From positions 3,769-67,768 of the forward strand of contig CAZOYV010000002.1 of NCBI GenBank assembly GCA_964584075.1: a stretch of DNA of 64,000 nucleotides, given 5' to 3'. Source of the DNA: an uncultured Rickettsiales bacterium (GTDB lineage: Bacteria > Myxococcota_A > UBA796 > UBA9615 > CAYRNR01). Below the pieces are notes generated by a model, which saw only the letters and a program-made list of their open reading frames with translations, did no database searches and was not told where the DNA came from. Shown here in pieces: positions 21,980-47,504 of the stretch. The first letter of the stretch is position 1. Every line of letters begins with the position of its first letter. The translations under genes and the position numbers were made by a program.

Positions 21980-23182
21980 GTGGGCTGGAGGCTGCCGGCG
22001 ATGGGGCTGCTCCCGCTGCTGCTGCTGGGCTGCGCGGCGGTGGGTCGGGCCGCGACCGGGCGGCCCGCGACGCACCCGGCGCAGTCCCCCGCGGACGGGT
22101 GCGGAGAGCCGGACCCGTGGCCGCTGTGGGAGGCCTACCGCGCGCACTTCATCACCTCCGAGGGGCGGGTGATCGACCACACCGGCGGCGGCCACTCCAC
22201 GTCGGAGGGCCAGGCCTACGCGATGGTGCTGTCCCTGATCGCCGGGGACCGCCAGACCTTCGAGCGCGTCCTGCGCTGGGCCACCGACAACCTGGCCGGC
22301 GGGGATCTGGCGGAGACGCTGCCGGCGTGGAAGTGGGGCCGCCTCGAGCCGGGGGAGTGGGGGGTCGCGGACCCCAACCCCGCCAGCGACGCCGACCTGT
22401 GGATGGCGTACGCGCTGATCGAGGCCGGCAGGTCGTGGGAGGAGCCCGCGCACGGGGAGCTGGGCCGGGCCATCGCGGCCAACGTCGCGGAGCGCGAGGT
22501 GGCGGACCTGCCGGGCCTGGGGCCGATGCTGCTGCCGGCTCCCGAGGGCTTCGTCCTCGACGAGCGGACCTGGCGCCTCAACCCCAGCTACCTGCCGCTG
22601 CAGGTGCTCGACGGGCTCGCCGCCTCGGGCGCCCGGGGACCGTGGGCCCGGGTCCGCGAGGGGGCCGTCGAGGTGCTGCGCGCCAGCGCGGCCGGCGGGT
22701 TCGTGCCGGACTGGATCGCCTACCGCGAGGGCTCCGGCTTCCTGCCCGATCCGGTCAGCGGCCCGGTGGGCAGCCACGACGCGATCCGCACCTACCTGTG
22801 GGCCTCGACGCTGCACGACGACGCCGCGGACAAGGCCGCGGTCTGTAGCCGGCTGCTGGGGATGGTGCGGCACTTCGACCGGCATGGCACCGTGCCCGAG
22901 CGGGTGGACGCCTTCGCCGGCGAGGTGCAGCAGGACCACGGACCGGTGGGCTTCCTCGGCGTGCTGCTGCCCGAGCTGGAGGCCGTCGGCGACGCCGAAC
23001 AGCTGGGGCGCCTGCGCGCCGAGATCGAGCTGTACCGCAACGGGGAGCTCTACGGCTCTCCGCCGACGTACTACGACCAGAACCTGCTCCTGTTCGCGAC
23101 CGGCTTCGACGACGGACGCTATCGCTTCGGCCCCGCCGGTCGCCTGCACACGAGCTGGGAGGGATCATGCGACGAGCCGTGA
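21980..23182 (+). CDS. bcsZ: Endo-1,4-beta-glucanase BcsZ (GH8), probably a lipoprotein.
   Basis: GH8 catalytic region SEGQAYAM and an overall GH8 fold. The N-terminal lipobox LLLLGC suggests a lipoprotein. Start is either GTG 21980 or ATG 22001. Confidence 0.75.
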   Translation: MGWRLPAMGLLPLLLLGCAAVGRAATGRPATHPAQSPADGCGEPDPWPLWEAYRAHFITSEGRVIDHTGGGHSTSEGQAYAMVLSLIAGDRQTFERVLRWATDNLAGGDLAETLPAWKWGRLEPGEWGVADPNPASDADLWMAYALIEAGRSWEEPAHGELGRAIAANVAEREVADLPGLGPMLLPAPEGFVLDERTWRLNPSYLPLQVLDGLAASGARGPWARVREGAVEVLRASAAGGFVPDWIAYREGSGFLPDPVSGPVGSHDAIRTYLWASTLHDDAADKAAVCSRLLGMVRHFDRHGTVPERVDAFAGEVQQDHGPVGFLGVLLPELEAVGDAEQLGRLRAEIELYRNGELYGSPPTYYDQNLLLFATGFDDGRYRFGPAGRLHTSWEGSCDEP

Positions 23183-26100
23183 CGATCATGCTGGGGACCG
23201 CCGTCCTGGCGGGCCTGCTGCTGGCGACGCCCGCGCCCCGGGCCCGCGCGGAGGACTCCGCGGCGATCCAGCGGCTGCTGGACAGCGCGGCGTACTGGGA
23301 GGAGCGCGGGCGGACCGACAAGCTGCTGGAGATCTACGCCAAGATCCTGCGGGCCGATCCGGACCACGTGGAGACGCTGGCCGCGCTGGCGCGCCACCAC
23401 GCCGCGGCGGGGAACGCCGCGGAGGCCGCCGAGTACCTGCGGCGGCTGGAGGAGGTGGACCCCGACCACCCGGCGGTGTCCTCCGTGGAGCGGTCGGTGA
23501 CCGCCACGCCCGGGGACGACCGGGCGCTCACCGAGGCCCGCCGGCTGGTGGCCCTCGACCGGGTCGCCGACGCCATCCCGCACTACCGCGAGTACTTCGG
23601 CGACGGCACCCCCAGCGGTCCCGTCGCCATCGAGTTCTACCAGACCCTGGGGGGCGTCTCCGACGAGGGCTGGGAGGAGGCGCGCGCCGGCCTGGAGCGC
23701 ATCGTGCAGCACAACCCCGGCAGCGTCCGGGCCCGGCTGGCGCTGGCCAAGCACCACACCTACCGCGAGTCGACGCGCCGCGACGGGATCCGCGAGATCG
23801 AGGAGATCGCGGCCGACGACGCGGTCTCCGGGGAGGCGGAGCAGGCCTGGCGCGACGCGCTGATGTGGCTCAACGCGGGGCCCGACGACGTGGCGCTGTT
23901 CCGCACCTACCTGACCGAGGTGGGCGAGGACGAGGATCTGCGCGCGCGGATGGACGCGCTGGGCTCGGTCGCCGCGGCCCGCTCCCAGCAGCTCGACCGC
24001 CTCGACCTGGGGTTCACCGCGCTGCAGGACGGGGACCTGGAGCGGGCCGAGGCGGTGTTCGACCGGGCCCTGACGCGCAACGGCAACAACCTGGACGCCG
24101 TGGTCGGACTGGCCACCGTGGAGATGGAGAAGGAGGACTTCGCGCGCGCCCGGGATCTGTTCGAGCGCGCGAAGGAGCTGGCACCGGGCCGCCCGGAGAA
24201 GTGGCGGCAGCCGCTCCGCAGCGCCTCGTTCTGGGAAGAGCTCCACGAGGCCGAGCGCCTCACCCGGCTGGGGGAGTTCGAGCGGGCCCGGACGCTGCTC
24301 GAGGCGGCGCGCGGGCGAGAGGTGGACGAGGTGGTGCACGCCGACGTGGCGCTGGGCAACCTGCTGATGGAGATGGAGCGCTTCGGCGAGGCCGAGCAGG
24401 TCTTCGCCACCGTCACCGAGGAGCACCCGGACAGCACCGCGGCGCTGTCGGCGATGGTGCACCTGAAGCTCCGCGAGGGGCGCCACGACGAGGCCGACGC
24501 GCTCAACCAGCGGCTGGCCGCGCTGGACGCCGGTGAGGCGCTGTCGCCGGAGCGCATCCAGTCCGAGATGATCCGCCACCGCGCGGAGTTCGAGCGAGAG
24601 ATCGGGGACCTGCGCCGGGCCCGCGGCCTGCTGGCCGAGGCCCACCGGCTGGACCCCGAGAGCGAGTGGCTGCTGTTCGAGCTGGCCGCCGTCCACGTGG
24701 AGCTGGGGGAGGTCGGCGAGGCCCGCGAGGAGCTGGACGAGCTCGTGGAGATGCGGCCCGACGAGCCGGAGTTCCGGCTGGCCAGCGCGAGGCTGTACGC
24801 CGAGCAGGGGCTGCTGGCCCAGGCGCTGCGCGAGATGCGCGCCGTACCCGAGGACCGGATGGGCGACGAGGCGCGCTCGTTCAAGACCCTGCTGGAGACG
24901 CGCGCCACGGCCCGCCTGGCCGTGGAGCGGGGCACCGTGCGCGGACAGCCCAAGGTCGCCCGCGACACGCTGCGCCGGCTGGAGCGCGAGGCGCGCAGCA
25001 CCCCCGAGGCGCTGGCCGAGGTGGCGCTGGCGTGGTCCGACCTGGGGGACCACGAGCGGGGCCTGTCGCTGATCCGCTCGGCGGCCGCGCAGAGCCTCTA
25101 CGAGGACCTGGGGGTCCAGCTGCAGCTGGGCGCGATCCTGCTGCGCGCCGGCGAGTACGAGGAGCTGGCCCAGCTGATCGCCGAGGTCCGCGAGGACCCG
25201 TACCTGACGCCGCGCCAGGAGCGGGACGTGGACGACCTGCGCATCGCCACGGCGGTGCGCCGCGCCGACGACGCCGCCGCCCGCGGCGAGCACGACGCCG
25301 CCCTGGGCCACCTGGCGCCGATGCTGCGAGAGTTCCCCGACGAGGAGCGGTTGATCAACGCCGTGGGGCGGCAGCTGATCGCCGAGGGCAACTACGCCGA
25401 GGCCGAGACGGTGTTCCTGGAGGTGCTGGAGCTCTCCCCCGACGACGTCGAGGCGCGCCAGGGGGCGATCGTGGCCTCGCTGAAGATGGGCCGCAAGAAG
25501 CAGGCCCGCACCATGCTCGCCGAGGGCCTGGAGCGATCGCCGGACGACCCGCGGATGCACCTCGCCGCCGGGCGAGCGCGGGCGATGATGGGCAACGACG
25601 GCAAGGCGGTACAGCACCTGCGCCGGGCGCTGGCGCTGCAGTCCGAGGCGCTCCCGGAGCCGCCGGAGGGGGCGGAGCAGGACGACGGACGCCTGGCGAT
25701 GCGCGACGACAGCGAGCAGGCGGGCCGGGTCTACGAGCAGATCCTGCGAGGCGCGATGGAGGGGACGGCGGGCCAGACCGCCGCCGAGGAGCCCGACCTG
25801 GACGCGACGCTGTACGGCCAGGTGCTGGTGGAGATCGACCGGATCCACGAGCGGCACCGGGCCGAGATCTCCGGGGGTCTGCACGTCCGCAACCGCGGGG
25901 GCGAGGGGGGCATGAGCCAGCTCGTCGAGCTGGGCGTGCCCGTGCAGGTGCGCCTGCCCACCGGCTACCGCGGTCACTTCGAGATCGCGGCGACGCCGCT
26001 GTACGTCTACGCCGGCGCGCTGGACGCCAGCGAGGTCGCCGTGGCCGAGCGCTTCGGGACCTACGGCACCGCGTCGCTGGTGACCGACGAGGACTCGGTG

Positions 26101-26982
26101 TACCAGCAGTTCGGGGTGGAGCTCCAGGGCGGGTACGCGATCCGCGGGTACCGCTTCTGGGTCGGCTCGACCCCGCTGGGCTTCGAGCGCATGACGGTCA
26201 CCGGCGGGATCGTGCTGGCCGACCGCATCGATCACTTCGGCTTCCGCCTCGAGGGCTTCCGCGAGGCCAAGCGCGACAGCCTGCTGACCTACGCCGGGCT
26301 GGAGGACCCGCTCACCGGCGAGGAGTGGGGGGGCGTGACCCGCAACGGCGGGCGCCTGGACCTGTCGGTGGACCGCCGGCCGATGCTGGTCTACGTCTTC
26401 GGCGGCTACGAGTTCCTGCTGGGGCGCCACGTCCCGATGAACCGCCGCTGGCAGGGGGGCGCCGGCCTGAAGTGGACGCCCGTGGAGACCGGCAAGCTGT
26501 CGCTGACCACCGGCGTCAGCGGGATGGGCATGGGGTACGTGGAGAACCTGCGGTTCTTCACCTTCGGCCACGCCGGGTACTTCAGCCCGCAGCTGTTCTT
26601 CAACGGCGGCGTTCCCCTGGAGTTCCGTGGCGACACCGGTCCGTTCGAGTTCGCGGTGGAGGTCCACCTCGGGCTGAACTGGTTCCGCGAGGAGTCGATG
26701 CCATACTACCCGGTGGACGAAGACCTGCAGGGCGCGCGCGAGGAGGTGCTCGACGCCGAGGGCCAGCCGGTCTCCCCCGTCTACGAGGGGCGGGACACGC
26801 TGTCGTTCGCGCTGACCGCGGGCCTGCTGCTGGACTACGAGATCACCGACCACGTCACCGCCGGGCTCGATGTCCGGCTGCACACCGCCGCCGAGTACAC
26901 GGAGCTCGTGGGTGGCCTCAACGTGGGCTACTCGTTCGGCAGCCCCAGCCCCGGCAACCGGGCCGCGAGGGGACGCAAGTAG
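23167..26982 (+). CDS. bcsC: Cellulose synthase operon protein BcsC (TPR array plus C-terminal outer-membrane beta-barrel).
   Basis: 1271 aa with a signal peptide, many TPR-like repeats, and a C-terminal approximately 350-aa beta-barrel with an aromatic terminal residue region (...GLNVGYSF). Confidence 0.8.
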   Translation: MRRAVTIMLGTAVLAGLLLATPAPRARAEDSAAIQRLLDSAAYWEERGRTDKLLEIYAKILRADPDHVETLAALARHHAAAGNAAEAAEYLRRLEEVDPDHPAVSSVERSVTATPGDDRALTEARRLVALDRVADAIPHYREYFGDGTPSGPVAIEFYQTLGGVSDEGWEEARAGLERIVQHNPGSVRARLALAKHHTYRESTRRDGIREIEEIAADDAVSGEAEQAWRDALMWLNAGPDDVALFRTYLTEVGEDEDLRARMDALGSVAAARSQQLDRLDLGFTALQDGDLERAEAVFDRALTRNGNNLDAVVGLATVEMEKEDFARARDLFERAKELAPGRPEKWRQPLRSASFWEELHEAERLTRLGEFERARTLLEAARGREVDEVVHADVALGNLLMEMERFGEAEQVFATVTEEHPDSTAALSAMVHLKLREGRHDEADALNQRLAALDAGEALSPERIQSEMIRHRAEFEREIGDLRRARGLLAEAHRLDPESEWLLFELAAVHVELGEVGEAREELDELVEMRPDEPEFRLASARLYAEQGLLAQALREMRAVPEDRMGDEARSFKTLLETRATARLAVERGTVRGQPKVARDTLRRLEREARSTPEALAEVALAWSDLGDHERGLSLIRSAAAQSLYEDLGVQLQLGAILLRAGEYEELAQLIAEVREDPYLTPRQERDVDDLRIATAVRRADDAAARGEHDAALGHLAPMLREFPDEERLINAVGRQLIAEGNYAEAETVFLEVLELSPDDVEARQGAIVASLKMGRKKQARTMLAEGLERSPDDPRMHLAAGRARAMMGNDGKAVQHLRRALALQSEALPEPPEGAEQDDGRLAMRDDSEQAGRVYEQILRGAMEGTAGQTAAEEPDLDATLYGQVLVEIDRIHERHRAEISGGLHVRNRGGEGGMSQLVELGVPVQVRLPTGYRGHFEIAATPLYVYAGALDASEVAVAERFGTYGTASLVTDEDSVYQQFGVELQGGYAIRGYRFWVGSTPLGFERMTVTGGIVLADRIDHFGFRLEGFREAKRDSLLTYAGLEDPLTGEEWGGVTRNGGRLDLSVDRRPMLVYVFGGYEFLLGRHVPMNRRWQGGAGLKWTPVETGKLSLTTGVSGMGMGYVENLRFFTFGHAGYFSPQLFFNGGVPLEFRGDTGPFEFAVEVHLGLNWFREESMPYYPVDEDLQGAREEVLDAEGQPVSPVYEGRDTLSFALTAGLLLDYEITDHVTAGLDVRLHTAAEYTELVGGLNVGYSFGSPSPGNRAARGRK

Positions 26983-27011: not shown

Positions 27012-30323
<3,312 letters not shown>

Positions 30324-30525: not shown

Positions 30526-32382
30526 ATGTCGGAGGCCCGGTCCCGCGAACGACTGGTGTGGGTGGGCTCGCTGGCCGTGGTGCTGTCGCTCGGATGTGCC
30601 GGCCTCGACGACGACGGGGGGCCGCCGGAGGAGCAGCCCACGCCGGAGCCCCAGGAATGTGACGAGGGCGAGCTGTGGGACGCCACGCTCGCGGCGTGCG
30701 TCCCGGAGGCGTGCGGCGCAGCGCGCTACCCCGCGGCCCCCGATCCCGAGATGGCCGCGGTGTACGTGGACGCCGGCTTCGAGGGGGGCTCCAACGGCAC
30801 CGCCGAGAACCCCTACACCTCGCTGAGCGAGGGGCTGTGGAACGCCGGCCCCGAGACGGCGGTGCTGGTGGCGGCCGGCGACTACGAGGTGGAGGGGCTG
30901 CAGGACCTCTCGCGGCCGGGCATGGCCCTGGTGGGCCGCTGCCCCGAGCTGACGACGGTGCAGGCCGCCGACGGGGGGCGCGTGCTGCGCATCGGTCAGA
31001 CCGAGCGGGCGCTCGTGGAGGGGCTGGCGTTCCTCGGCGACGGGGGGGAGCCCGGCGAGGACGACGCCGTGCCGGAGCCGCTGGTCGAGCTGTTCAACTC
31101 CACCGAGCTGACGATCCGCCGCTGCGCGTTCCGCGACGGCCGCTACGACGGCCTGCTGGTGTGGCAGTGCGGGCAGGTCGAGATCGCGGACAACGCGGTC
31201 TCCGGCTGCGCCCGGGCCGGCATCAGCGCCGCGCTGTCCACGGACGTGGTGGCCCGGGGCAACCGCGTCGAGGGGACGCGGGCGATGGCCACGGGCTCGA
31301 TGGGCCACGGGCTGTACGTGCTGCACGCCACCGGCGCGACGGTGGAGGACAACGTGCTGGCGGACAACGAGGGCGGCGGCGTGTGGATCTCCGACGGCGA
31401 GCCGGTGGCCGTCCACGACAACACGGCGCGGGACAACGCGGGCCCCGGCATCGACGTGCGCTACTGCGCCGGGCTGACGGTGGAGGACAACGTCGCGGAG
31501 GGCAACCGCCGCTTCGGCCTGGCCGTGCGCAGCAGCGCCGGGACGGTGACCGGCAACGAGGTCGCCGGTACCACCGCGGGGGCGGACGGCGCCTACGGCT
31601 GGGGGCTGTACCTGGGCGACGTGGCCGGCGTCGAGGTCCGGGACAACACCATCGAGGACAGCGTCGAGGCCGGGCTGGTGGTGGCGTATGCCACGGGCGC
31701 GGTGGAGGACAACGAGGTGCGCTCCGTGGCCCCCAACGCCGGCGGCACGCTGGGCCGCGGGATCGAGCTGGCGGACGTGGACGACCTGGTCCTCGCCGGC
31801 AACCGGGTCGAGGACGCCGCCGAGATCGGCATCGCGGTGCTCGACAGCATCGTGGAGGTGCGCGACAACGAGGTCCACGCGACGCAGCCGGTGGCCGCCG
31901 GCGACGACGGCTACACCTTCGGGCACGGGATCCACGTCCAGGACTCCACCGATGTCCTGTGCGAGGGCAACGCGGTCACGGAGGCGACCCACCACGGCAT
32001 CGTGTACCTGGACACCCTGCGCGGGGAGGTCGCCGGCAACGTCGTCAACGGCACGCTCGCCGGCGGGGCGCCCGGGTGGCCCCACGGGGACGGCATCGCC
32101 GTGCTGACCGTCGACGAGTCGGTGTGGGTCCACGACAACGCCGTCGCCGACAACGAGCGCTGCGGCGTGCTCGTCGACCACGCCACGGCCTCGGTCACCG
32201 GCAACACCGTGACCGGCAACGAGCTGGCGGTGGTGGCCCAGAACCAGGCCCAGCTGACCGCCGAGGACAACGAGATCGAGGGGAACGCGCAGGACGAGGT
32301 GGTCGAGTACCCCGGGGCCCAGCTGCCGGTCCACGCCGGCGGAGTCGAGCCGCTGGACGGTCCCTCGCCCTCCGGGGACTGA
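30526..32382 (+). CDS. Lipoprotein with right-handed parallel beta-helix repeats (NosD/CASH/pectate-lyase-like).
   Basis: Internal start MSEARSRERLVWVGSLAVVLSLGCAG has a lipobox. About 20 or more degenerate 22-25-aa repeats follow (xGNxVxxNxxxGIxV...), typical of PbH1 beta-helix repeats. Its stop overlaps the start of the sigma factor gene as TGATG. Confidence 0.65.
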   Translation: MSEARSRERLVWVGSLAVVLSLGCAGLDDDGGPPEEQPTPEPQECDEGELWDATLAACVPEACGAARYPAAPDPEMAAVYVDAGFEGGSNGTAENPYTSLSEGLWNAGPETAVLVAAGDYEVEGLQDLSRPGMALVGRCPELTTVQAADGGRVLRIGQTERALVEGLAFLGDGGEPGEDDAVPEPLVELFNSTELTIRRCAFRDGRYDGLLVWQCGQVEIADNAVSGCARAGISAALSTDVVARGNRVEGTRAMATGSMGHGLYVLHATGATVEDNVLADNEGGGVWISDGEPVAVHDNTARDNAGPGIDVRYCAGLTVEDNVAEGNRRFGLAVRSSAGTVTGNEVAGTTAGADGAYGWGLYLGDVAGVEVRDNTIEDSVEAGLVVAYATGAVEDNEVRSVAPNAGGTLGRGIELADVDDLVLAGNRVEDAAEIGIAVLDSIVEVRDNEVHATQPVAAGDDGYTFGHGIHVQDSTDVLCEGNAVTEATHHGIVYLDTLRGEVAGNVVNGTLAGGAPGWPHGDGIAVLTVDESVWVHDNAVADNERCGVLVDHATASVTGNTVTGNELAVVAQNQAQLTAEDNEIEGNAQDEVVEYPGAQLPVHAGGVEPLDGPSPSGD

Positions 32383-33798: not shown

Positions 33799-34323
33799 TC
33801 AGGAGCCGATCGCCCCGGGCGGGATCGCGACGCCCCGGAGCAGGGCGCCGAGGTAGCGTGCCCGCACCAGCGCGCGGCCCAGCCTTCCCGGGTCGGACCT
33901 CGGCGGCGCCGGGCGCGCGCGGCGGAGCTCGCGACCGAGGTACCGCACCACGGTGCCGGCCACGTCGACCTCGTCCGAGATCCGCAACGTGACGGCCCGG
34001 TCCGGTATGTCGTCGCCGGCCTCGAAGACCGGCTCGCGGTTGAGCCGGAGCCGGCCGTCGCGGGCGCGGTCCAACAGCACCACCAGCCCGTCGGAGCGCT
34101 GGTGGATCACGGCCAGCAGGTCGGCGGTCCCGGGGTCTCCGGCCTGGATCGCGGCCCGGGTGCCGCGGCCCACCCCGACGTACTCCTCGCCGCTCCACAG
34201 CTCGTAGGGCGGGTTGCCGTCGACCCTCACCTCCAGGTGCAGGTCGTACCGCGCGCGGCGGCGCCGTTCCCGTGCGTCGCGCGCGTCGCGACGCCCGATC
34301 TCGTCGGGGTACCAGCGTCTCAT
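33799..34323 (-). CDS. Hypothetical protein with a degenerate FHA-like domain.
   Basis: Start MRRWYPDEIGRR has a GGGAGA RBS. The segment VGVGRGTRAAIQAGDPGTADLLAVIHQRSDGLVVLLDRARDGRLRLNREPV...DIPDRAVTLRISDEV aligns loosely to the FHA consensus (GR...D..L....VSR.HA......L.D..S.NGT.VNG....L..GD.I.LG). The opposite-strand ORFs here look antisense-like. Confidence 0.4.
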   Translation of the reverse strand: MRRWYPDEIGRRDARDARERRRRARYDLHLEVRVDGNPPYELWSGEEYVGVGRGTRAAIQAGDPGTADLLAVIHQRSDGLVVLLDRARDGRLRLNREPVFEAGDDIPDRAVTLRISDEVDVAGTVVRYLGRELRRARPAPPRSDPGRLGRALVRARYLGALLRGVAIPPGAIGS

Positions 34324-34465
34324 GGTGGGTCTCCCAGTTGGATCGACGCTAGCGCGACGCTCCCGGCCCGAGCACCGGGCGCGCACCGTGCGCGTGGTGG
34401 TGGCGCGCCGGAATCACGGGTCGGGGAATCTCCGATGGCTCCCGGCCAGCCGGGCGGCCACCGTC

Positions 34466-36322
34466 TCACCTCCCGGCGATCAGCTCGCGCACCGCGGCGG
34501 CGATCGCCCCGCGGTCGATGCCGGCGTACGCCAGCAGCTCGGCGGGCTGGCCGCTGCGCGGGATGCGCCGCACCGCCAGCGAGCGCAGCGGCACCGGCGC
34601 CTCGCTCAACGCCTCGCGCACCGCGTCGGCGATGCCGCCGGCGGCGGCGTGGTCCTCGACGGTGACGATCCGCCCGGTCTCGTCGGCGGCCCGCCGCAGC
34701 GTCTCGCGATCCACCGGGCGCACGCTGTACAGGTCCACCACCCGGGCCGAGATCCCGTCGCGGTCCAGCTCCTCGTGCGCGGCGAGGGCTTCGTGCAGCG
34801 TCACCCCCGCGGCCACGATCGTCGCCCGGTCGTCGGGCCCGCCGTGGAGCACCCGGGAGCCGCCGACGGCGAACTCGTCGTCGCGGTCGTAGATCACCGG
34901 CGTGGCGTTGCGGGACAACCGCAGGTAGCCGATCCCGGGCTCCCGCGCCAGCAGCTCCACCATCCGGTCCGCCGACACCGCGTCGCAGGGGTACAGCACG
35001 GTGGAGCGCAGCAGCGAGCGGAACAGCGCCAGGTCCTCGAGCCCCATCTGGGACGGGCCGTCCTGGCCGATGGAGACCCCGGCGTGGCTGCCGACGAACT
35101 CGATGGTCGCGTCGGAGTACTGGCACATCCGGATCTGGTCGTGGGCGCGGGTGAGGAACGCCGCGAACGTGGAGACGAACGGCAGCTTGCCCCGGCGGGA
35201 GAGCCCCAGCGCCGCGCCCACCATGTTCTGCTCGGCGACGTACATCTCGAAGAAGCGATCGGCGTGCCCGGCCGCGAAGTGCCTCGCGCGGGTGGAGTCG
35301 CTCACCTCGCCGTCGAGGGCGACCAGCGCGGGGAACGCCGGGAAGATGCGGTGGAGCGCCTTGCCGTAGGCGTCCCGGGTGGCCACCTGCTGGCCGCGCA
35401 CCCAGCCCGGCGCGGCGATCTCCGCCGGCGGGCGGGGCCGGGGCGCGGCGGCGTCGGGCGGGGAGATCTCGCCGCGCAGCGAGGGGTCCACCTCGCCGAT
35501 CTCGGCCAGCGCGCGCTGCAGCTCGTCGCCGTCGGGGGCGGCGCCGTGCCACCCCTCGCGGTCCTCGAGGAACGACACGCCCTTGCCCTTGATCGTGCGG
35601 GCGACGATCATCGCGGGGCGACCGTCGCCGCGCGCCACCTGCTCGTAGGCGTCCACCACGGCGGCCAGGTCGTGGCCGTCCTCGAGGGTCAGGGTGCGCC
35701 AGCCGAAGGCGCCCACGCGCCGCGCGTAGGCGTCGACGTCGTGGCCGTACATCGTCTCGCCGCGCTGGCCCAGGCGGTTGACGTCGAGGACGCCGACGAG
35801 GTTGTCCAGGCCGTGGTGGGCGGCCAGCTGGATCGCCTCCCACTGCGACCCCTCGGTCATCTCGCTGTCCCCCAGCAGCACGTAGGTGCGGTACGGCAGA
35901 TCGTCGATCTCCCGCGCAGCCAGCGCCATCCCCAGGCCCGCGGAGAGGCCCTGGCCCAGCGAGCCGGTGGCCACGTCGACGTAGGGGAAGCGCGGGGTGG
36001 GGTGCCCCTCCAGCGTGCTGTCGAACTCGCGGTAGCCCCGCAGCTCGCTCCGGGCCACCCGGCCCGCCGCGGCCCACAGCGCGTACAGCAGCGGCGTGGC
36101 GTGGCCCTTGGAGAACACCACGCGGTCGTTGCCCGGGTGGTCGGGCCGCTCCGGGTCGTACCGGAAGGTGCCGCCGAAGAACAGCCCGGTGCACAGCTCG
36201 ACGGCCGACAGCCCCGACGTGGGGTGGCCCGAGCCGGCCTCGCTCGTGGCCACCAGGATGTGGCGGCGGATCAGGCGGCACAGCTCGCCCAGGTGGTGGA
36301 GTCGTTCGCCGGTGGTGTCCAT
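34466..36322 (-). CDS. tkt: Transketolase.
   Basis: Real start MDTTGERLHHLGELCRLIRRHILVATSEAGSGHPTSGLSAVE is at 36322 with a GGCGAGGAGGG RBS. 618 aa, with the thiamine diphosphate motif GDSEMTEGSQWEA and transketolase pyrimidine-binding and C-terminal domains. The upstream 360 codons of ORF 34466..37411 were rejected. Confidence 0.9.
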   Translation of the reverse strand: MDTTGERLHHLGELCRLIRRHILVATSEAGSGHPTSGLSAVELCTGLFFGGTFRYDPERPDHPGNDRVVFSKGHATPLLYALWAAAGRVARSELRGYREFDSTLEGHPTPRFPYVDVATGSLGQGLSAGLGMALAAREIDDLPYRTYVLLGDSEMTEGSQWEAIQLAAHHGLDNLVGVLDVNRLGQRGETMYGHDVDAYARRVGAFGWRTLTLEDGHDLAAVVDAYEQVARGDGRPAMIVARTIKGKGVSFLEDREGWHGAAPDGDELQRALAEIGEVDPSLRGEISPPDAAAPRPRPPAEIAAPGWVRGQQVATRDAYGKALHRIFPAFPALVALDGEVSDSTRARHFAAGHADRFFEMYVAEQNMVGAALGLSRRGKLPFVSTFAAFLTRAHDQIRMCQYSDATIEFVGSHAGVSIGQDGPSQMGLEDLALFRSLLRSTVLYPCDAVSADRMVELLAREPGIGYLRLSRNATPVIYDRDDEFAVGGSRVLHGGPDDRATIVAAGVTLHEALAAHEELDRDGISARVVDLYSVRPVDRETLRRAADETGRIVTVEDHAAAGGIADAVREALSEAPVPLRSLAVRRIPRSGQPAELLAYAGIDRGAIAAAVRELIAGR

Positions 36323-36496
36323 GGGGCCCTCCTCGCCGGGTGTGCACGTTCGCCAGGACACCGTCCGAACCGCCGGCCGCCGGTACCATCGGGGAGGCTC
36401 CCAGGGCGGGGTGGTGCCGTTCCCGGAGAAGGGGACGCTCAAAAAAAGACGGCGCCCCCCTTGCGCCTCCGATCGCGGTGCCGAGTGTCGGTCGCC

Positions 36497-37369
36497 ATGG
36501 GAGCACCCTCGTCGGCCCGCCGCGCTCCGCCGGGAGCCGGGGCGACCGCCGCCCGTGCGCGGCGGCTCGCCTCGCTCGCCGTCCTGCCGTGGCTGCTCGC
36601 GGCGGCGCCCGCGGCCCGCTCGCAGGAGCCGGCGGAGCCGCCCGCCGCGGAGAAGGCGGGGAGCGGGGAGGAGCCCGTCGACGAGACCGCGCGGTTCTAC
36701 GTGCGGCGCTGCACCGGCTGCCACACCATCGGCGAGGGAGAGCTCGACGGTCCCGACCTGCAGGACTCCACCACCTGGCCGGTGGCCGACCTGGTGCCCG
36801 CCATCGAGCGGATGGAGAAGAACGTGGGGCCGATGAGCGACGCGCGCGTGACGGCGCTCGCGGAGCTGCTCCAGGACCCCCGGGTGCAGGAGCGCATCGG
36901 GACCGCCGGGGAGCGGCTGGCCGGAGAGCGGGCCGCCGACCTGCCGCCGGCGCGGGCCGAGGCCGGCCGGGCGCTGTTCTTCGGCGAGCGGGCGTTCGCC
37001 GAGGGCGGGCTGGCCTGCGCGGCGTGCCACTCGGCCGAGGGCCGCGGCGGGAACCTCGCCGCCCCGCTGCACGACGCGGCCTCGCGGCTGGGCCACTCCG
37101 CGCTGGTCTCCGCCGGCGCCCGCCCCGGCTACCCGCTGATGAAGGCCAGCTACCGGGACGAGCCGCTGCGCGAGCAGGAGGCGCGCCACGTGGCCGCGTA
37201 CCTGGAGTCGCTGCAGGGGCCGCCGCCCCCCGGCGCCGAGCCGGTGGCCGCCATCGGCTGGTCCGGGACCCTGCTGGCGCTCGCCGCGGTGGGCGCCGGC
37301 GGCCTGGCGGCCCTGCGCCGCGCCAGCGGGGTGAGGCGGCGCCTCGTCGAGCGCGCCAGGAGGAGCTGA
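36497..37369 (+). CDS. narC: Dihaem c-type cytochrome with an N-terminal signal peptide and a C-terminal TM anchor (NarC-like).
   Basis: Two CxxCH motifs (CTGCH, CAACH). Signal peptide RRLASLAVLPWLLAAAPAARS. C-terminal hydrophobic helix AAIGWSGTLLALAAVGAGGLAAL. Its stop sits 1 nt before the narG ATG. The arrangement resembles Thermus thermophilus narCGHJI. The RBS is weak, so the start is uncertain. Confidence 0.7.
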   Translation: MGAPSSARRAPPGAGATAARARRLASLAVLPWLLAAAPAARSQEPAEPPAAEKAGSGEEPVDETARFYVRRCTGCHTIGEGELDGPDLQDSTTWPVADLVPAIERMEKNVGPMSDARVTALAELLQDPRVQERIGTAGERLAGERAADLPPARAEAGRALFFGERAFAEGGLACAACHSAEGRGGNLAAPLHDAASRLGHSALVSAGARPGYPLMKASYRDEPLREQEARHVAAYLESLQGPPPPGAEPVAAIGWSGTLLALAAVGAGGLAALRRASGVRRRLVERARRS

Positions 37370-37370
37370 G

Positions 37371-41006
<3,636 letters not shown>

Positions 41007-41026
41007 CCGCCGCGAGCCGGAGGACG

Positions 41027-42519
<1,493 letters not shown>

Positions 42520-42523
<4 letters not shown>

Positions 42524-43059
42524 GCCGGCCCGACCCCAGGACGGCCGTGGCGGCGCTCGCCGGGCTGCTGCGCTACCCGGACGGCTCGCTCGAGGGCCGC
42601 GTCCGCGACGCGCGCGCGAGCGTCGGGACGGTCGACGCCGGGCTCGCGGGCGCCCTCGACCGCTTCGTGGACGAGACGAGGCGGCTGGGCCCGGCGAGGC
42701 ACGAGGAGCTGTACACCCGCACCTTCGACCTCTCGCCGTCGTGCGTGCCGTACCTGTCGGTGTACCTGTTCGGCGCCGGCAGCCTGGAGCGAGGCCGGCT
42801 GATGTCGGGCCTCGCCGGGGCCTACCGCCGCACGGGCCACGACCCGGGCGGCGAGCTGCCCGACCACGTCGCGGTGGTGCTGGCGTGGGCGCCCCGGGCC
42901 CCCCGCGAGGAGTGGCGGGAGCTGGTGGACCATGCGCTGCGGGGTCCGCTGCGGCAGATGGGCAGGACCCTCGAGGAGGCAGGCAACCCCTACCGCCACC
43001 TGCTGGCCGCGGCGGCGACGGCGGTGGAGCTCGCCCGCGGGGGGGGCGGCGATGGCTGA
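42520..43059 (+). CDS. narJ: Nitrate reductase assembly chaperone NarJ.
   Basis: Start overlaps the narH stop as ATGA, with a GCGGAGG RBS. 179 aa with a NarJ/TorD-like fold motif (ELYTRTFDLSPSCVPYLSVYLFG). Confidence 0.8.
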
Positions 43060-44371
43060 GACCTTCCTGTTCGTGGGCATGCCCTACCTGGCCGTGGTGT
43101 TCCTGATCCTCGGCTCGTACCTGCGCTACCGGTCCGACCGCTTCGGGTTCTCGGCGCTGTCGTCGCAGATCCTCGAGAGCCGCCTGCTGCCGTGGGGTTC
43201 GATCCCGTGGCACGCCGGGATCCTGATCGTGCTGGTGGGGCACCTGCTGCCGCTGCTGGCCCCGGGCCCCTGGCAGGCGCTGGTGTCCGAGCACGCGGTC
43301 CTGGTGGTGGTGGAGGCCGTGGGGCTGGGTGCGGCCCTGGCCGCGGGCATCGGGCTGACCCTGCTGCTGGTGCGCCGCGTGCTCGGCGCCCCGCTGCAGC
43401 GGGTGACCTCGGTGCTGGACCTGGTCGTGGTGGGCCTGCTGCTGGCCCAGGTCGCGCTGGGCATCGGCGTGGCCCACGCCCACCGCTGGGGGGCCTCGTG
43501 GTCGGCGGGGACCACCACGCCGTACCTGTGGAGCTTGCTGACGCTGCAGCCGCGGCCGGCGCTGGTCACCGGCCTGCCGGCGCTGGTCCAGGTCCACCTC
43601 GTCGTCGCCTGGCTGATCTTCCTGCTGGTCCCGTTCTCGCGGCTGGTCCACCTGTTCTCGATCCCCGTCGGCTACCTGGTGCGCCCGTACCTGAAGGTGA
43701 TCTGGGCCAGCCGGCGTCGGCTCGACCTCGCGGTCGAGGAGCACCCTCCCGACGCCGGCCGGCGCCTGCTGGTCCAGGGCCTGGCGGGGGCGGGCGCCGC
43801 GGTCGCCCTGCTGGGGGTGGGCGTCGCCGAGAAGCTGCTGGGGTTCTTCTCGGGACCGGAGATGTCGCTCCGGGAGGAGGCCGATCTGCTGGGCCGCAAG
43901 ATCGAGCGGCTGGAGCAGACCGCGCAGCAGCGGGAGCTCCAGCTCGAGCGGCTGCACTCGGAGCGGATCCTCGTGGCCCGCCTGGGCGACCTGTCCCCGA
44001 CGGAGGGGCACTACTTCATCGACTACGAGATGCGGCCGGCCCTGGCGTTCCGCGGCCCGGACGGCCTGCCGCTGCTGATCTCGGCGGAGTGCACCCACCT
44101 GGGCTGCACCGTGTCCCGCGAGGTGGACTCCCGCGGACGGCTGTTCTGTCCGTGCCACGTCTCCTACTTCGATCTGGAGACCGGCGAGCCGGAGCCGGGG
44201 TCGCCCGCCGACGCGCCGCTGCCCCGCATCGGCTGGGAGCTCGTCGACGCCGGCGGCGAGACGGTGGCGTCGGCGCGCCCCGGCGGGCCGGTGACCGGCG
44301 ACGTGGACCCGCAGGCCCTGGAGGGCCACGACGTGTACATCGCGCGGCGCTTCGCCGGGGGGCCGGTCTGA
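43052..44371 (+). CDS. narI: Fusion protein: nitrate reductase gamma subunit NarI (dihaem b, 5 TM) fused at its C-terminus to a Rieske [2Fe-2S] protein.
   Basis: Residues 1-225 are NarI-like (MAETFLFVGMPYLAVVFLILGSYLRYR..., with His ligands such as WHAGILIVLVGHLL and VQVHLVVAWLIFLLVPFSRLVHLFSIPVGYLVRPY). The frame continues without a stop into an RR-containing TM linker (RRLLVQGLAGAGAAVALLGVGVA) and a Rieske domain with box I CTHLGC and box II CPCHVS. The fusion is a single uninterrupted 439-aa ORF. Confidence 0.8.
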   Translation: MAETFLFVGMPYLAVVFLILGSYLRYRSDRFGFSALSSQILESRLLPWGSIPWHAGILIVLVGHLLPLLAPGPWQALVSEHAVLVVVEAVGLGAALAAGIGLTLLLVRRVLGAPLQRVTSVLDLVVVGLLLAQVALGIGVAHAHRWGASWSAGTTTPYLWSLLTLQPRPALVTGLPALVQVHLVVAWLIFLLVPFSRLVHLFSIPVGYLVRPYLKVIWASRRRLDLAVEEHPPDAGRRLLVQGLAGAGAAVALLGVGVAEKLLGFFSGPEMSLREEADLLGRKIERLEQTAQQRELQLERLHSERILVARLGDLSPTEGHYFIDYEMRPALAFRGPDGLPLLISAECTHLGCTVSREVDSRGRLFCPCHVSYFDLETGEPEPGSPADAPLPRIGWELVDAGGETVASARPGGPVTGDVDPQALEGHDVYIARRFAGGPV

Positions 44372-45459
44372 TGGGTCGGCTCGCGGGCTGGCTGGGGGAG
44401 CGCTTGCCGCTGCAGCGGCTGAGCTGGCAGACGCTCGTCGAGGACAAGGAGGTCCCGCGGCACCGCTTCAGCTGGGCCTACTACCTCGGCGGGCTGGCCC
44501 TGTTCGCGTTCGCGATCCAGCTCGTGACCGGGCTGATGCTGCTGTTCTACTACGAGCCGACGGTCTCCGACGCCCACGCGTCCATCGACCACATCTCGCA
44601 CCACGTCCCCGGCGGCTTCCTGGTGCGCAACCTGCACACCTGGACCGCGTCGGCGATGGTGCTGTTCGTGCTGCTGCACCTGCTGACCACGTTCGCGATG
44701 AAGGCCTTCGACCGGCCGCGCGAGCTGACCTGGCTGACCGGGATCGTGCTGCTGCTGGTGACCTTCGGCTTCGGCTTCACCGGCTACCTGCTGCCGTGGC
44801 ACCAGGTGGCGGTCAACGCGACCAAGGTCGTGCTGCAGTCCATCGAGGAGGTCGGGCGCTACCTGCCCGGCTCGCTGGCGGAGCTCCCGGCGCAGCTGGC
44901 GGAGCTGATCCAGGGCGGCCCGTCGGTGGGCCAGTCCACCCTGTCGCGGTTCTACGCGCTCCACGTCGTGGTGCTGCCGCTGGTCGTGCTCGCGACGCTG
45001 GCCGTGCACCTGCTGGTGGTGCAGCTCCACGGGATGTCGCCCGGCGTGGACCGGCCCACCGGCCGCGCCGACCGGTTCTTCCCGTTCTTCGTGCTCGAGG
45101 ACCTCTCGCTGTGGGGCGCGGTGTTCCTGGTGCTGTTCGCGCTGGCGCTGCTGGTGCCGTTCGAGGCGCTGTACTCCTACCCCCTGTTCGCGGCCTACGA
45201 GCCGATGGGCGCGACGCCGGACGGGATCAAGCCCGAGTGGTACTTCTACTGGATCTACTACCCGCTGGAGCTGCTGCCGTTCTGGCTCGTGACCCTGGCG
45301 GCCGGCGCCGCCCTGGCGGTGATCGTGGCGTCCCCGTGGATCTTCCGCCGCACCGGCCGGCGCACGGCGGCCATCCTCGCCGCCGGCGCCGGGGCGTACC
45401 TGCTCGTGATGACCGCGCTCGGCCAGCGGATCCACGAGCTGTTCCGGGGGGGTGGCTGA
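44371..45459 (+). CDS. Cytochrome b of the bc/b6f type (b6 plus subunit-IV-like fused, 362 aa).
   Basis: Start overlaps the fusion-gene stop as TGATG. Haem-ligand His region ...SIDHISHHVPGGFLVRNLHTWTASAMVLFVLLHLL. Motifs TGYLLPWHQ and PEWYFYWIYYPLE are characteristic of cyt b6/subunit IV. Confidence 0.85.
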   Translation: MGRLAGWLGERLPLQRLSWQTLVEDKEVPRHRFSWAYYLGGLALFAFAIQLVTGLMLLFYYEPTVSDAHASIDHISHHVPGGFLVRNLHTWTASAMVLFVLLHLLTTFAMKAFDRPRELTWLTGIVLLLVTFGFGFTGYLLPWHQVAVNATKVVLQSIEEVGRYLPGSLAELPAQLAELIQGGPSVGQSTLSRFYALHVVVLPLVVLATLAVHLLVVQLHGMSPGVDRPTGRADRFFPFFVLEDLSLWGAVFLVLFALALLVPFEALYSYPLFAAYEPMGATPDGIKPEWYFYWIYYPLELLPFWLVTLAAGAALAVIVASPWIFRRTGRRTAAILAAGAGAYLLVMTALGQRIHELFRGGG

Positions 45460-46082
45460 TGCGCGTGCTCGCCACCGCGATCGTGCTGCTGCTCGCCACG
45501 CCGGCCGGGGCCCACCCGGAGTTCGAGGCGTGGATCGAGCAGCGCTCCGGCGCGTGGGTCGACTGCGCGATGTGCCACACCCACCCGGAGGGGCCGGAGG
45601 GGGTCAAGCCGGGCCAGATCCGAAGCCTCGGTCCGGACGAGCTCGACGCTCTCAACCGCGCGCGGAGCGCATTCGAGCCGGGCGCGGGGGTGGACAGTCC
45701 GATCCTCAACGACTTCGGCGACCGGATGCTCGACGAGCTGGGCAAGACCGAGATCCTGCGGCTGCGCCACGAGGACCCGGGCCAGGTGGCCGAGGCGCTC
45801 GGGGCCGAGGGCGACCTCGACGGCGACGGGATCGCCGACGCCCGGGAGTACCTCGACGGCACCCACCCCCTCGACGCGCACAGCGGCGAGCCGCTGGCGC
45901 TGGCCCGGCAGCGGCTGCGCGACCGCACCTTCGACCTGCTGATGATCGTGCTGGCCACCCTCGCCGGGGTGTGGGGCCTCAACCGGCTGATCTCGTCCCG
46001 GCGGGCCGGCCCCGGCGGAGGGGCCGCGACGCCGCGCGACGCCGCGCAGACGTCGTCGCGCGAGGGCAGGAGCGCGAGGTGA
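45459..46082 (+). CDS. Membrane-anchored monohaem c-type cytochrome.
   Basis: Start overlaps the cyt b stop as TGATG. Signal peptide MRVLATAIVLLLATPAGA. Single CAMCH haem-binding motif. Asp/Gly-rich Ca-binding-like motif DLDGDGIADAREYLDGTHPLD. C-terminal TM helix LLMIVLATLAGVWGL. Confidence 0.6.
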   Translation: MRVLATAIVLLLATPAGAHPEFEAWIEQRSGAWVDCAMCHTHPEGPEGVKPGQIRSLGPDELDALNRARSAFEPGAGVDSPILNDFGDRMLDELGKTEILRLRHEDPGQVAEALGAEGDLDGDGIADAREYLDGTHPLDAHSGEPLALARQRLRDRTFDLLMIVLATLAGVWGLNRLISSRRAGPGGGAATPRDAAQTSSREGRSAR

Positions 46083-47389
46083 GCGGCTCCTTCCGCGGTA
46101 CGCCCCGTTCGGGCCTGATCGGCGCCACGCTGGGGTTCTTCGTCGGCTTCGCCGCGGTGGCGCTGTTCGGCCCCACGGCGCGGCGCTTCCAGGAGGTGAT
46201 GGAGCTGACGCCGCTGATGGTCGGCTTCCTGGTGGCGATGCCGGCGCTCTCGGGCTCGATCCTGCGCATCCCGTTCTCGGCCTGGGTCGACACCACGGGG
46301 GGCCGCAAGCCGTTCCTGGTGCTGCTGGCGCTGTCCGTGGTGGGGATGGCCGGGGTGCTCGCCGTGGTGTGGCTGCTGTACCCCGACCGCCTGACCGCCG
46401 CGACCTACCCCCTGCTGCTGCTGCTGGGGGTGCTCTGCGGCTGCGGCATCGCCACCTTCTCGGTGGGCATCAGCCAGGTCTCCTACTGGTACCCGCAGGG
46501 CTCGCAGGGCCGGGTGCTGGCGATCTTCGCGGGCTTCGGCAACGTCGCCCCGGGGATCTTCTCGTTCCTGATCCCGGTGGCCCTGGGCAGCATCGGCCTG
46601 GCCGGCTCGTACCTGGCCTGGCTGGCCTTCCTCGCCGCCGGCACCGCCGTGTACGTCCTCACCGGGCGCAACGCCTGGTACTTCCAGCTCCGCCGCCGCG
46701 GCCTGGATGACGCCGCGGCGCGCGAGCGGGCCCGGGAGCAGGGCCAGGAGCTGTTCCCGGCCGGCAGCCTGCGGGAGAGCCTCGCCCGCTCCGCCCGCGT
46801 GTGGCGCACGTGGGCGCTGGTGGCGGTCTACTTCACGACGTTCGGCGGGTTCATCGCGATGACCGCCTGGCTGCCGACCTACTGGACCGAACTGCACGGC
46901 ACGCCGGAGCTCACCGCCGGCCTGCTCACCGGCGTGTACTCGATCCTGGCGTCGCTGATCCGGATCCCCGGCGGCTTCCTGGCCGACGCCCGGGGCGGCG
47001 CGATCACCGGCGCGGTGGCGCTCGTGGTGCTCCTCGCCGGCGCGCTGGTGGCGAGCCTCTCCGCCGGACTGGGGCCGGCCGTCGCCGGGATCGTGCTGAT
47101 GGCCATCGGCATGGGCGTGACCAACGCCGCGGTGTTCAAGCTCGTCCCCCAGGTCGTCCCCGACGCCGTCGGCGGAGCCGTGGGCTGGGTCGGCGGCCTC
47201 GGCGCCTTCGGCGGCTTCGCGATCCCCCCGGTCCTGGGCTGGGCGGTCCGCGCCTGGGGAGACGCCGGCTACGCCCGCGGCTACCTGGTGTTCGTGGCGC
47301 TGGCGGCGCTGTCGCTGGGGATGGTGTGGCTGGCGCGGCGCGGCCTGCGGACCCAGGCCTCCCCGGGAGGACGCGCGGACGAGGGATGA
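46079..47389 (+). CDS. narK: MFS nitrate/nitrite transporter.
   Basis: GTG start overlaps the upstream stop as GTGA, with an AGGAG RBS. 12-TM MFS with a NarK-like Gly-rich signature (GFGNVAPGIFSFL, GGLGAFGGFAIPPVLG). Confidence 0.8.
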   Translation: MSGSFRGTPRSGLIGATLGFFVGFAAVALFGPTARRFQEVMELTPLMVGFLVAMPALSGSILRIPFSAWVDTTGGRKPFLVLLALSVVGMAGVLAVVWLLYPDRLTAATYPLLLLLGVLCGCGIATFSVGISQVSYWYPQGSQGRVLAIFAGFGNVAPGIFSFLIPVALGSIGLAGSYLAWLAFLAAGTAVYVLTGRNAWYFQLRRRGLDDAAARERAREQGQELFPAGSLRESLARSARVWRTWALVAVYFTTFGGFIAMTAWLPTYWTELHGTPELTAGLLTGVYSILASLIRIPGGFLADARGGAITGAVALVVLLAGALVASLSAGLGPAVAGIVLMAIGMGVTNAAVFKLVPQVVPDAVGGAVGWVGGLGAFGGFAIPPVLGWAVRAWGDAGYARGYLVFVALAALSLGMVWLARRGLRTQASPGGRADEG

Positions 47390-47504
47390 GGAGAGTCCCG
47401 GACCCTGGAGCGCGAGTCTGGAGAGGCGCCGGGCCCGGGGATCTGGGCGCCGGAGCCCGGCGGCGAGCGCGGCGGCGGGGAGGGGGACCTGCCGCCGGAG
47501 GGGA

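Follow-up and report, generated by a model that had tools for sequence, protein, structure and literature searches.

We have analysed a 64,000-nucleotide stretch of DNA from an uncultured bacterium (contig CAZOYV010000002.1, positions 3,769 to 67,768; hereafter the window), which carries an operon for a membrane-bound nitrate reductase in which the NarI subunit is fused to a Rieske iron-sulfur protein. The GC content of the window is ~75% throughout, and for this reason long spurious open reading frames (ORFs) are present in every frame. Genes were called using a plot of GC content by codon position together with a simple caller based on third-position GC, and were identified by searching Pfam and NCBIfam. 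The codon-position plot shows unbroken plus-strand coding frames over ~36450-47400, and the caller returned eight adjacent plus-strand genes there, the identity of each being backed by domain searches. Positions 36497-47389 of the plus strand are one operon encoding eight proteins. The order is narC, narG, narH, narJ, narI::Rieske, cytochrome b, monohaem cytochrome c and a nitrate/nitrite transporter of the major facilitator superfamily (MFS), as follows.

36497-37369, plus strand: narC, 290 amino acids (aa); PF13442 and PF00034
37371-41006, plus strand: narG, 1211 aa; TIGR01580, 1444 bits against a cutoff of 1084
41000 (ATG) or 41003 (GTG) to 42523, plus strand: narH, iron-sulfur subunit; TIGR01660, 588 bits against 524
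42520-43059, plus strand: narJ, assembly chaperone, 179 aa; PF02613, 39.5 bits against a cutoff of 22.2
43052-44371, plus strand: narI::Rieske, 439 aa; PF02665 and PF00355; TIGR00351, 128 bits against 105.6
44371-45459, plus strand: cytochrome b, 362 aa; PF00033, PF13631 and PF00032
45459-46082, plus strand: monohaem cytochrome c, 207 aa; CAMCH at residue 36
46079-47389, plus strand: MFS nitrate/nitrite transporter, probably of NarO type; PF07690; TIGR00886, 148 bits, cutoff 312

NarG, NarH and NarI all score above their NCBIfam equivalog cutoffs; NarJ scores 56.9 bits with TIGR00684, slightly below the cutoff of 59.35. The narC stop lies 1 nt before the narG ATG, leaving a 1-nt spacer. All the other junctions are overlaps, of 4 or 7 nt (narG/narH), 4 nt (narH/narJ), 8 nt (narJ/narI), 1 nt (narI/cytochrome b), 1 nt (cytochrome b/cytochrome c) and 4 nt (cytochrome c/transporter). 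The original prediction, made from the letters of the window, had described a single tightly coupled unit with all genes linked by overlaps of 1-4 nt. The tight packing is clear, the junctions ranging from the 1-nt spacer to the 8-nt overlap; the quoted range holds for most of them, but not for narC/narG or narJ/narI. That prediction had also begun narI at the in-frame ATG at 42932, a start that we reject because of the 128-nt overlap with narJ that it entails. Translation from 43052 (MAETFLF...) gives the 439-aa product on record, and we place the start there. Two long minus-strand ORFs were likewise discarded. One of 2355 aa (34320-41387), antisense to narC and narG, is a by-product of the ~99% third-position GC and not a gene, and an overlapping ORF of 981 aa at narC is a high-GC artefact.

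The first gene product has two haem-binding motifs, CTGCH at residue 72 and CAACH at residue 174, in two class-I-like domains. Hydropathy analysis shows a hydrophobic N-terminal leader and a C-terminal hydrophobic stretch (~250-272) followed by an arginine-rich basic tail. NarC is thus predicted to be an exported, periplasmic dihaem cytochrome c that is anchored in the membrane by its C-terminus. Two methionines, Met106 and Met215, do not vary across the alignment of the NarC family, and are likely to be the axial ligands; their invariance indicates two His/Met haems. The operon coordinates, both haem motifs and the anchor had been given correctly beforehand. The possibility of a mis-called narC frame, raised at the same time, is ruled out by the fit of the plus-strand codon-position GC over ~36450-37300, and by the existence of homologues.

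A Thermus-like NarC had been suggested to head the operon, with an alignment to the Thermus thermophilus protein and a check of the haem-motif spacing as the way to examine this. The comparison reveals clear homology. Searching 72,556 plasmids with tblastn, the sole matches were 13 T. thermophilus NarC genes, annotated in their records as c-type cytochrome, cytochrome c or hypothetical protein. The match in T. thermophilus JL-18 is a 262-aa ORF directly 5′ of narG, in an operon of order narC-narG-narH-narJ-narI-transporter, so that the position of the gene is also the same. By BLASTP the second haem domains are 41% identical (E = 2e-14), and alignment of the profile of the window family with Thermus NarC by hhalign gives a probability of 99.6% and E = 9e-24 over 172 columns that include both haem domains. 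The two proteins have a common architecture of leader, haem domain 1, linker, haem domain 2, anchor and basic tail, and their anchors align. The haem motifs are spaced by 102 residues in the window protein and by 111 in Thermus, and the first haem domain of the former contains a family-specific RMEKNVGP motif that is absent from Thermus NarC. The best NCBIfam match is to actinobacterial QcrC, and is weak (33 bits against a cutoff of 200). From sequence comparison the first gene is a genuine Thermus-type narC.

The NarC family comprises 214 clusters at 50% identity (E ≤ 1e-30). We surveyed one genome per GTDB species with NarC-family patterns, which gave 164 relatives, from which 80 loci were kept. 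Two CxxCH motifs are present in 84 of the 85 NarC ORFs of the fetched loci, Thermus included, and narG follows narC wherever the fetched contig continues, with the exception of L081 and L082. These two loci (L081, 3310-8291; L082, 10001-14631) have distant NarC-like genes of 32% identity with no true narG adjoining. Of the two, the one in a Myxococcales metagenome-assembled genome (MAG) has a neighbour that is only 34% identical to NarG, suggesting another enzyme of the dimethyl sulfoxide reductase family, and the one in a Thermoanaerobaculaceae MAG is followed directly by a NarI-like gene of 28% identity. The family may therefore serve other molybdoenzymes too. Some members (P0255, P0256, P0257, P0308 and P0392) are 512-580 aa long with three or four profile-matching stretches; they look like tandem duplications, and possibly contain four or more haems.

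In Thermus, NarC is the fourth subunit of the enzyme; it interacts strongly with NarI in two-hybrid assays, and is required for both the maturation and the membrane attachment of NarG (PMC7694296). According to the same review, mesophiles have no NarC in their nar operons (PMC7694296), a remark that its occurrence here contradicts. NarC itself, and the gene order narC-G-H-J-I-transporter, are already known from Thermus, where the operons are narCGHJIK/T or narCGHJI-narO. It is the combination of NarI::Rieske, cytochrome b and an orphan cytochrome c that sets the present cassette apart from the known Thermus-type operon, which has no genes for Rieske protein, cytochrome b or monohaem cytochrome c.

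NarG is the catalytic subunit, containing molybdenum bis(molybdopterin guanine dinucleotide). The window NarG is 59% identical to that of Thermus, and 45-48% identical to those of E. coli, Paracoccus, Niallia, Embleya and Rhodococcus. We constructed a neighbour-joining tree of 69 NarG sequences (1206 columns, 100 bootstraps), the set being without the NxrA of Nitrobacter. All NarC-linked NarG, Thermus included, form one clade in 100 of 100 bootstraps. Within it the NarG of the Rieske-fused type is monophyletic (100/100), as is the Thermus type (97/100), which contains Thermus, three Chloroflexota MAGs and one Sphingomonadaceae MAG. The nearest neighbours of the window NarG are from Acidobacteriota MAGs. 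A phylogeny of NarG had been proposed as a way to place the operon, and it groups with the Thermus type, away from proteobacterial, Bacillota and actinobacterial NarG.

The N-terminus of NarG (MAWIQDLFDPQQ...HGVNCTGGC) is without a twin-arginine leader, and therefore the active site faces the cytoplasm. The presence of a nitrate/nitrite transporter in the operon fits with this orientation. A periplasm-facing enzyme of the haloarchaeal type was considered and rejected, since NarG is without a twin-arginine translocation (Tat) leader and NarI is present. The transporter had been called narK. It is indeed an MFS nitrate/nitrite transporter, but it falls below the TIGR00886 cutoff (148 against 312 bits), and is 59% identical to the transporter of the nar operon of T. 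thermophilus JL-18. The latter has been named NarO, representing a third subfamily of nitrate/nitrite antiporters (PMC6394727). In the related loci the transporter is downstream of the cassette in 22 and upstream in 5, and is unseen within the fetched flanks elsewhere.

The fifth gene encodes the NarI-Rieske fusion. Its features are as follows.

43052-43720, plus strand: NarI domain, residues 1-223; haem histidines H54, H64, H182 and H200
43760-43765, plus strand: R237-R238 of the internal Tat motif GRRLLVQG, before the sixth transmembrane helix
43964-44344, plus strand: Rieske domain, residues 305-431; boxes CTHLGC (44090-44107) and CPCH (44147-44158)

Conservation was assessed in an alignment of the 120 best relatives among 343 clusters returned by protein search. 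All of these best 120 are ~440 aa in length with both PF02665 and PF00355, and those with names are called only nitrate reductase gamma subunit. At the level of the loci, 56 of 57 have NarI and Rieske in a single open frame. The exception (L007, 16528-17842), in which the two matches are in different frames, comes from a 75%-GC Acidobacteriota MAG that is the closest relative found (57% identity in NarC and 71% in NarG); the change of frame may reflect an indel introduced by sequencing or assembly, or the gene may truly be split.

The four haem histidines H54, H64, H182 and H200 are invariant in 120/120 and align with E. coli H56, H66, H187 and H205. The two Rieske boxes, including the disulfide cysteines, are equally invariant (120/120), and the best match of the Rieske domain in the PDB is the Rieske protein of the Thermus bc complex (1NYK/3FOU, E = 5e-9). 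Between the two domains lies a sequence conforming to the Tat consensus (S/G)RRx(F/L)L(K/R)G, in which the arginine pair is present in all 120 sequences; it is followed by a hydrophobic helix and then by a conserved tether helix. An AlphaFold2 model of the fusion, run on database homologues, has a predicted local distance difference test score (pLDDT) of 85.9 and comprises the NarI helices, a helix at 233-267, the tether helix at 273-302 and a β-rich domain at 305-431. The C-terminus of NarI is in the cytoplasm. A sixth helix would therefore return the chain to the periplasm, where the Rieske domain must sit, and the topology of the fusion is self-consistent. The internal Tat motif, as read from the sequence, implies that a folded domain would be exported by Tat behind five Sec-type helices. 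Combined insertion by Sec/YidC and Tat is known for the three-helix Rieske proteins of actinobacteria, and the fusion would offer a clean case of a Tat-dependent domain behind five helices of Sec type.

The NarI part differs from stand-alone NarI at the position of E. coli Lys86. This residue, lying beside haem bD, we take to belong to the quinol site; its functional role was reportedly the subject of a study by Bertero et al. in J Biol Chem in 2005. We compared this position in 12 stand-alone NarI sequences, where it is lysine in the Proteobacteria, tyrosine in the Bacillota and Actinomycetota, and arginine in all five of the Thermus type. In the fused NarI it is F, A, V, I, L or M in 113 of 120 sequences, and is Val83 in the window. 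This suggests that the fused NarI may have lost its quinol site while retaining both haems.

The two genes that follow the fusion would belong to a cytochrome bc-like module. The cytochrome b consists of a b6-like four-helix part joined to a part that resembles subunit IV, and its best matches in the PDB are to cytochrome b6 (E = 7e-50). Four haem histidines are present, with the 14-residue spacing in helix D that is typical of b6, and the PEWY motif of the quinol-oxidising (Qo) site is present in 53 of 53 orthologues. The position of b6 Cys35 is tyrosine in the window protein, indicating that there is no haem cn.

The monohaem cytochrome c has a signal peptide, a DxDxDG motif resembling a calcium loop (119-130) and a C-terminal transmembrane anchor. 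Each of 52 orthologues has exactly one CxxCH, and besides its histidine there is no conserved His, Met or Lys among them. The protein has no match in Pfam or the PDB by sequence and belongs to no curated family, and an AlphaFold2 model (pLDDT 90.2) found no match in the PDB using Foldseek. Its family comprises 293 clusters in the database, most of which are annotated as hypothetical protein. The mature N-terminus is predicted to be (Y/H/F)PEF...SGR.V.CAMCH, which places the haem motif ~17 residues from the start and recalls cytochrome f, in which the haem is ligated by the N-terminal amino group. Profile searches with the monohaem cytochrome c did not detect cytochrome f. We presume this protein to be the equivalent of cytochrome c1 or f in the bc module. 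Both of the membrane-anchored c-type cytochromes of the operon lie outside the c1 and f families, the similarity of NarC to QcrC being weak (33 against 200 bits).

How widely is this arrangement found? We searched the 80 loci and four metagenome contigs with the eight window proteins using tblastn. The order narC-G-H-J-I::Rieske-cytochrome b-cytochrome c occurs in 53 further distinct loci, bearing at least 12 phylum labels and with locus GC contents of 33-75%. The labels are Acidobacteriota, Hydrogenedentota, Verrucomicrobiota, Planctomycetota, Melainabacteria/Obscuribacterales, Omnitrophota, Sumerlaeota, Alphaproteobacteria, Gemmatimonadota, Calditrichota, Eisenbacteria and FCPU426. A narCGHJI set without the genes for Rieske, cytochrome b and cytochrome c is found in four loci and in Thermus. 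Since the same order recurs in 53 independent loci it cannot be due to chance; the cassette is a module that is either ancient or has been transferred widely, and at least 53 other genomes have it in this order. In one of the related metagenome loci (L002, 5442-9973) the cassette is preceded by a ScdA/hemerythrin gene of RIC type, a regulator of the Crp/FNR family and two tandem MFS transporters. Neither a NarI-Rieske fusion nor a bacterial nar operon with Rieske/cytochrome b genes is described in the full-text literature that we searched, the coverage of which leaves out most subscription journals.

These comparisons bear on the possibility that the operon simply encodes two independent enzymes, a normal NarGHI and a general-purpose Rieske/cytochrome b complex, the fusion being a neutral accident that was fixed early. 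Each part taken alone does look like a complete conventional module. Yet NarI and Rieske are kept as a fusion, in a conserved gene order and with both accessory cytochromes, across the phylum labels and the range of GC content given above, the fused-type NarG forms one clade in every bootstrap, the Tat motif and tether helix are strongly constrained, and there is a family-specific change at the quinol site of NarI. Moreover, such an accident gives no reason for NarC and the orphan cytochrome c to be constantly present. We regard this explanation as improbable.

Still less probable, to the point that we give it little credence, is that the enzyme runs in the opposite direction, like the nitrite oxidoreductase of Nitrobacter. 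It would then oxidise nitrite in the cytoplasm; the electrons would leave through NarI and NarC for cytochrome c and an oxidase, with reverse electron flow supported by the Rieske/cytochrome b module. A very similar cluster with a NarC homologue is indeed found in the nitrite-oxidising Nitrobacter (PMC7694296). Against this, the window NarG passes the equivalog model for narG and clusters with the nitrate reductase of Thermus, in a tree that is without Nitrobacter NxrA, and the operon includes a nitrate/nitrite antiporter, probably of NarO type. The regulator, RIC-type gene and transporters flanking the cassette in L002 are typical of anaerobic nitrate/nitric oxide (NO) regulons. To our knowledge the lineages that host the cassette do not include known nitrifiers.

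Our preferred interpretation, to which we assign a probability of around one half, is that the products of the operon would form a single supercomplex that couples a Q cycle to nitrate reduction, with quinol oxidised at the Qo site and NarI acting as a wire. The proposal is based on the apolar residue at the quinol-site position of NarI, the retention of both NarI haems, the constant presence of NarC, the intact Qo apparatus and the fusion of NarI to the Rieske protein. What is observed is the identity of the genes, the fusion and the conservation; from these we infer which way the electrons flow, that NarI has lost its quinol site, and the stoichiometry. Quinol would be oxidised at the Qo site formed by the Rieske protein and cytochrome b, and not at NarI. 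The high-potential electron would pass from the Rieske cluster to the monohaem cytochrome c, through the two His/Met haems of NarC to haem bD of NarI, and then via haem bP and the Fe-S clusters of NarH to the molybdenum site of NarG, while the second electron would be recycled through cytochrome b in a Q cycle. A contact between NarC and NarI is proposed because Thermus NarC binds NarI (PMC7694296). NarI would in this scheme be mainly a transmembrane wire from the periplasmic to the cytoplasmic side. The fusion would fix a 1:1 stoichiometry and hold the Rieske anchor beside NarI, and its assembly would need Tat export of the Rieske domain after insertion of the five NarI helices by Sec/YidC. 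The Q cycle would translocate ~2 charges per 2 electrons and transfer to the cytoplasmic, proton-consuming site a further ~2, giving a total of ~4 charges per 2 electrons compared with 2 for the redox loop of classical NarGHI.

The original prediction had envisaged three separate electron-entry modules around one NarGH. A single serial chain fits better, because the modules co-occur (53 loci), NarI and Rieske are fused and the position of Lys86 is apolar. An extended form of the serial scheme can be put forward more tentatively, and we would not quite give it even odds. This is that the cassette encodes a kind of respiratory enzyme not recognised before, a supercomplex of nitrate reductase and bc complex with covalent hard-wiring, in which NarI does not oxidise quinol and the charge yield is approximately doubled. 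It would be spread over more than a dozen mostly uncultured phyla, including a non-photosynthetic sister lineage of the Cyanobacteria, and the third subunit of its bc part would be a cytochrome c whose fold is not represented in the PDB and in which no side chain is conserved as the sixth ligand.

Several observations weigh against the serial scheme. Haem bD has a potential of ~+20 mV in E. coli, and c-type haems are typically at +200 mV or more. If the potentials are similar to those of E. coli, transfer from a His/Met c-type haem to bD would be uphill, a step that could be accommodated only by virtue of the large overall drop to nitrate. The Lys86 argument turns on a single position; four of the 120 fused NarI sequences have arginine there, and 51 of 120 have an arginine two residues upstream. 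Every homologue found comes from a MAG or a metagenome assembly. Lastly, genetic studies in Thermus suggest that NarC passes electrons outwards, to the nitrite and NO reductases (PMC7694296).

This last point leads to the principal alternative, in which the chain branches as in Thermus. NarI would still oxidise quinol, and NarC, the monohaem cytochrome c and the Rieske/cytochrome b module would feed periplasmic acceptors, such as nitrite, NO and nitrous oxide reductases or oxidases. The operon would simply bundle with the nitrate reductase the complex III that the subsequent steps of denitrification require, and the fusion would do no more than co-localise the two. Thermus without NarC no longer grows on nitrite or NO if complex III is repressed, and the protein has been proposed to be an electron bridge to Nir and Nor (PMC7694296). 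Both NarG and NarC of the window are of Thermus type, and the fused NarI retains both of its haems. However, the quinol-site position is kept in all five Thermus-type NarI sequences, whereas it is apolar in 113 of 120 fused ones. A generic complex III needs no covalent tie to NarI, yet the fusion is almost universal. In addition, examination of neighbouring genes with Pfam revealed no nir, nor or nos genes near the operon within the window. On balance we consider branching to be unlikely, if less so than the two alternatives discussed above.

The cassette can be compared with several known systems. With Thermus NarCGHI it shares the anchored dihaem cytochrome c directly 5′ of narG, a sister NarG of 59% identity that faces the cytoplasm, and a transporter probably of NarO type; Thermus NarI is unlike that of the window in standing alone and in having arginine at the quinol-site position. 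Classical NarGHI, as in E. coli and Paracoccus, has NarG, NarH, NarJ and NarI in common with the window, and the four haem histidines of NarI are kept. It differs in that its NarG is 45-48% identical and falls in a separate clade, there is no NarC, and its NarI is unfused and has Lys86.

The actinobacterial bcc-aa3 complex (QcrCAB-CtaCDEF) is an obligate supercomplex in which an anchored dihaem cytochrome c wires the bc complex to the terminal reductase with no soluble carrier, and its Rieske protein has extra N-terminal helices before the Tat-dependent last helix. QcrC of this complex is also the best, if weak, NCBIfam match of NarC. In the window the terminal enzyme is a molybdenum nitrate reductase and not a haem-copper oxidase, and the extra helices before the Tat helix of the Rieske protein are an entire dihaem NarI. 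A functional link between such a complex and a nitrate reductase has been suggested for Nar1 of Streptomyces spores. Falke et al. (2021) found that the activity of Nar1 requires an active bcc-aa3 supercomplex, with which it co-purifies, and used thermodynamic arguments to propose transfer from dihaem QcrC to haem bD of NarI, with 4 H+ instead of 2 (PMC7931247). The scheme for Streptomyces coelicolor spore Nar1 is like ours in running from a Q cycle through a dihaem cytochrome c and NarI bD to a cytoplasmic NarGH; it is unlike it in that the components are encoded at separate loci, and a loose association is inferred from co-purification and genetic dependence (PMC7931247). In the window there is one operon and a covalent NarI-Rieske link, with NarC and an orphan monohaem cytochrome c where Streptomyces has QcrC. 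By analogy, the operon looks like a hard-wired genetic version of the Nar1-bcc-aa3 idea.

The haloarchaeal nitrate reductases provide a further comparison. Their NarG is exported by Tat and there is no NarI; in the narB/narC module of these organisms the name NarC denotes a cytochrome b. The window differs in all these respects, with NarG lacking a Tat leader, NarI present and fused, and c-type cytochromes used. In haloarchaea an outward-facing nitrate reductase is proposed to be fed by its own Rieske/cytochrome b complex, encoded alongside narGH, with electrons passing via a b-type cytochrome, while in Bacteria, in the textbook view, NarGHI draws its electrons directly from quinol and the Rieske/cytochrome b complex is bypassed (PMC3509893). 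The sole hint to the contrary has so far been the indirect biochemistry in Streptomyces spores (PMC7931247). The conserved NarI-Rieske operon provides genetic evidence for a Q-cycle module that has repeatedly been kept tied to a cytoplasm-facing nitrate reductase. If the serial route is correct, the energy yield of nitrate respiration would be underestimated by ~two-fold in many environmental lineages, among them Acidobacteriota, Verrucomicrobiota, Planctomycetota, Hydrogenedentota, Obscuribacterales and Omnitrophota, and the cassette would be a natural test system for the disputed role of NarC in Thermus. Annotation pipelines miss the cassette, naming the fusion a nitrate reductase gamma subunit and the cytochrome c a hypothetical protein.

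The upstream flank of the operon is arranged as follows, the assignment of the divergent gene being from the gene calls and Pfam.

34466-36322, minus strand: transketolase-family gene, divergent from narC
36323-36496, no strand: intergenic, presumed promoter region, between the divergent transketolase-family gene and narC

The intergenic region contains no FNR/CRP-type site (TTGA-N6-TCAA), the six one-mismatch matches in the window all lying elsewhere; there is neither a regulator nor an FNR-type box beside narC in the window, and no intrinsic terminator was found after the transporter gene. The neighbours in the window are the transketolase-family gene, a sigma factor, a NosD-like β-helix protein, a cellulase of glycoside hydrolase family 9 (GH9), BcsC, TamB and Omp85. 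The GH9 cellulase (27378-30323) is a secreted protein of 981 aa with seven N-terminal metal-binding repeats of MopE type and a CBM3 carbohydrate-binding domain. It lies between a BcsC-like protein upstream (23179-26982) and the NosD-like β-helix protein downstream (30556-32382). Together with the 75% GC content and the presence of TamB and Omp85, this GH9/BcsC neighbourhood suggests that the operon belongs to a cellulose-active Gram-negative soil bacterium.

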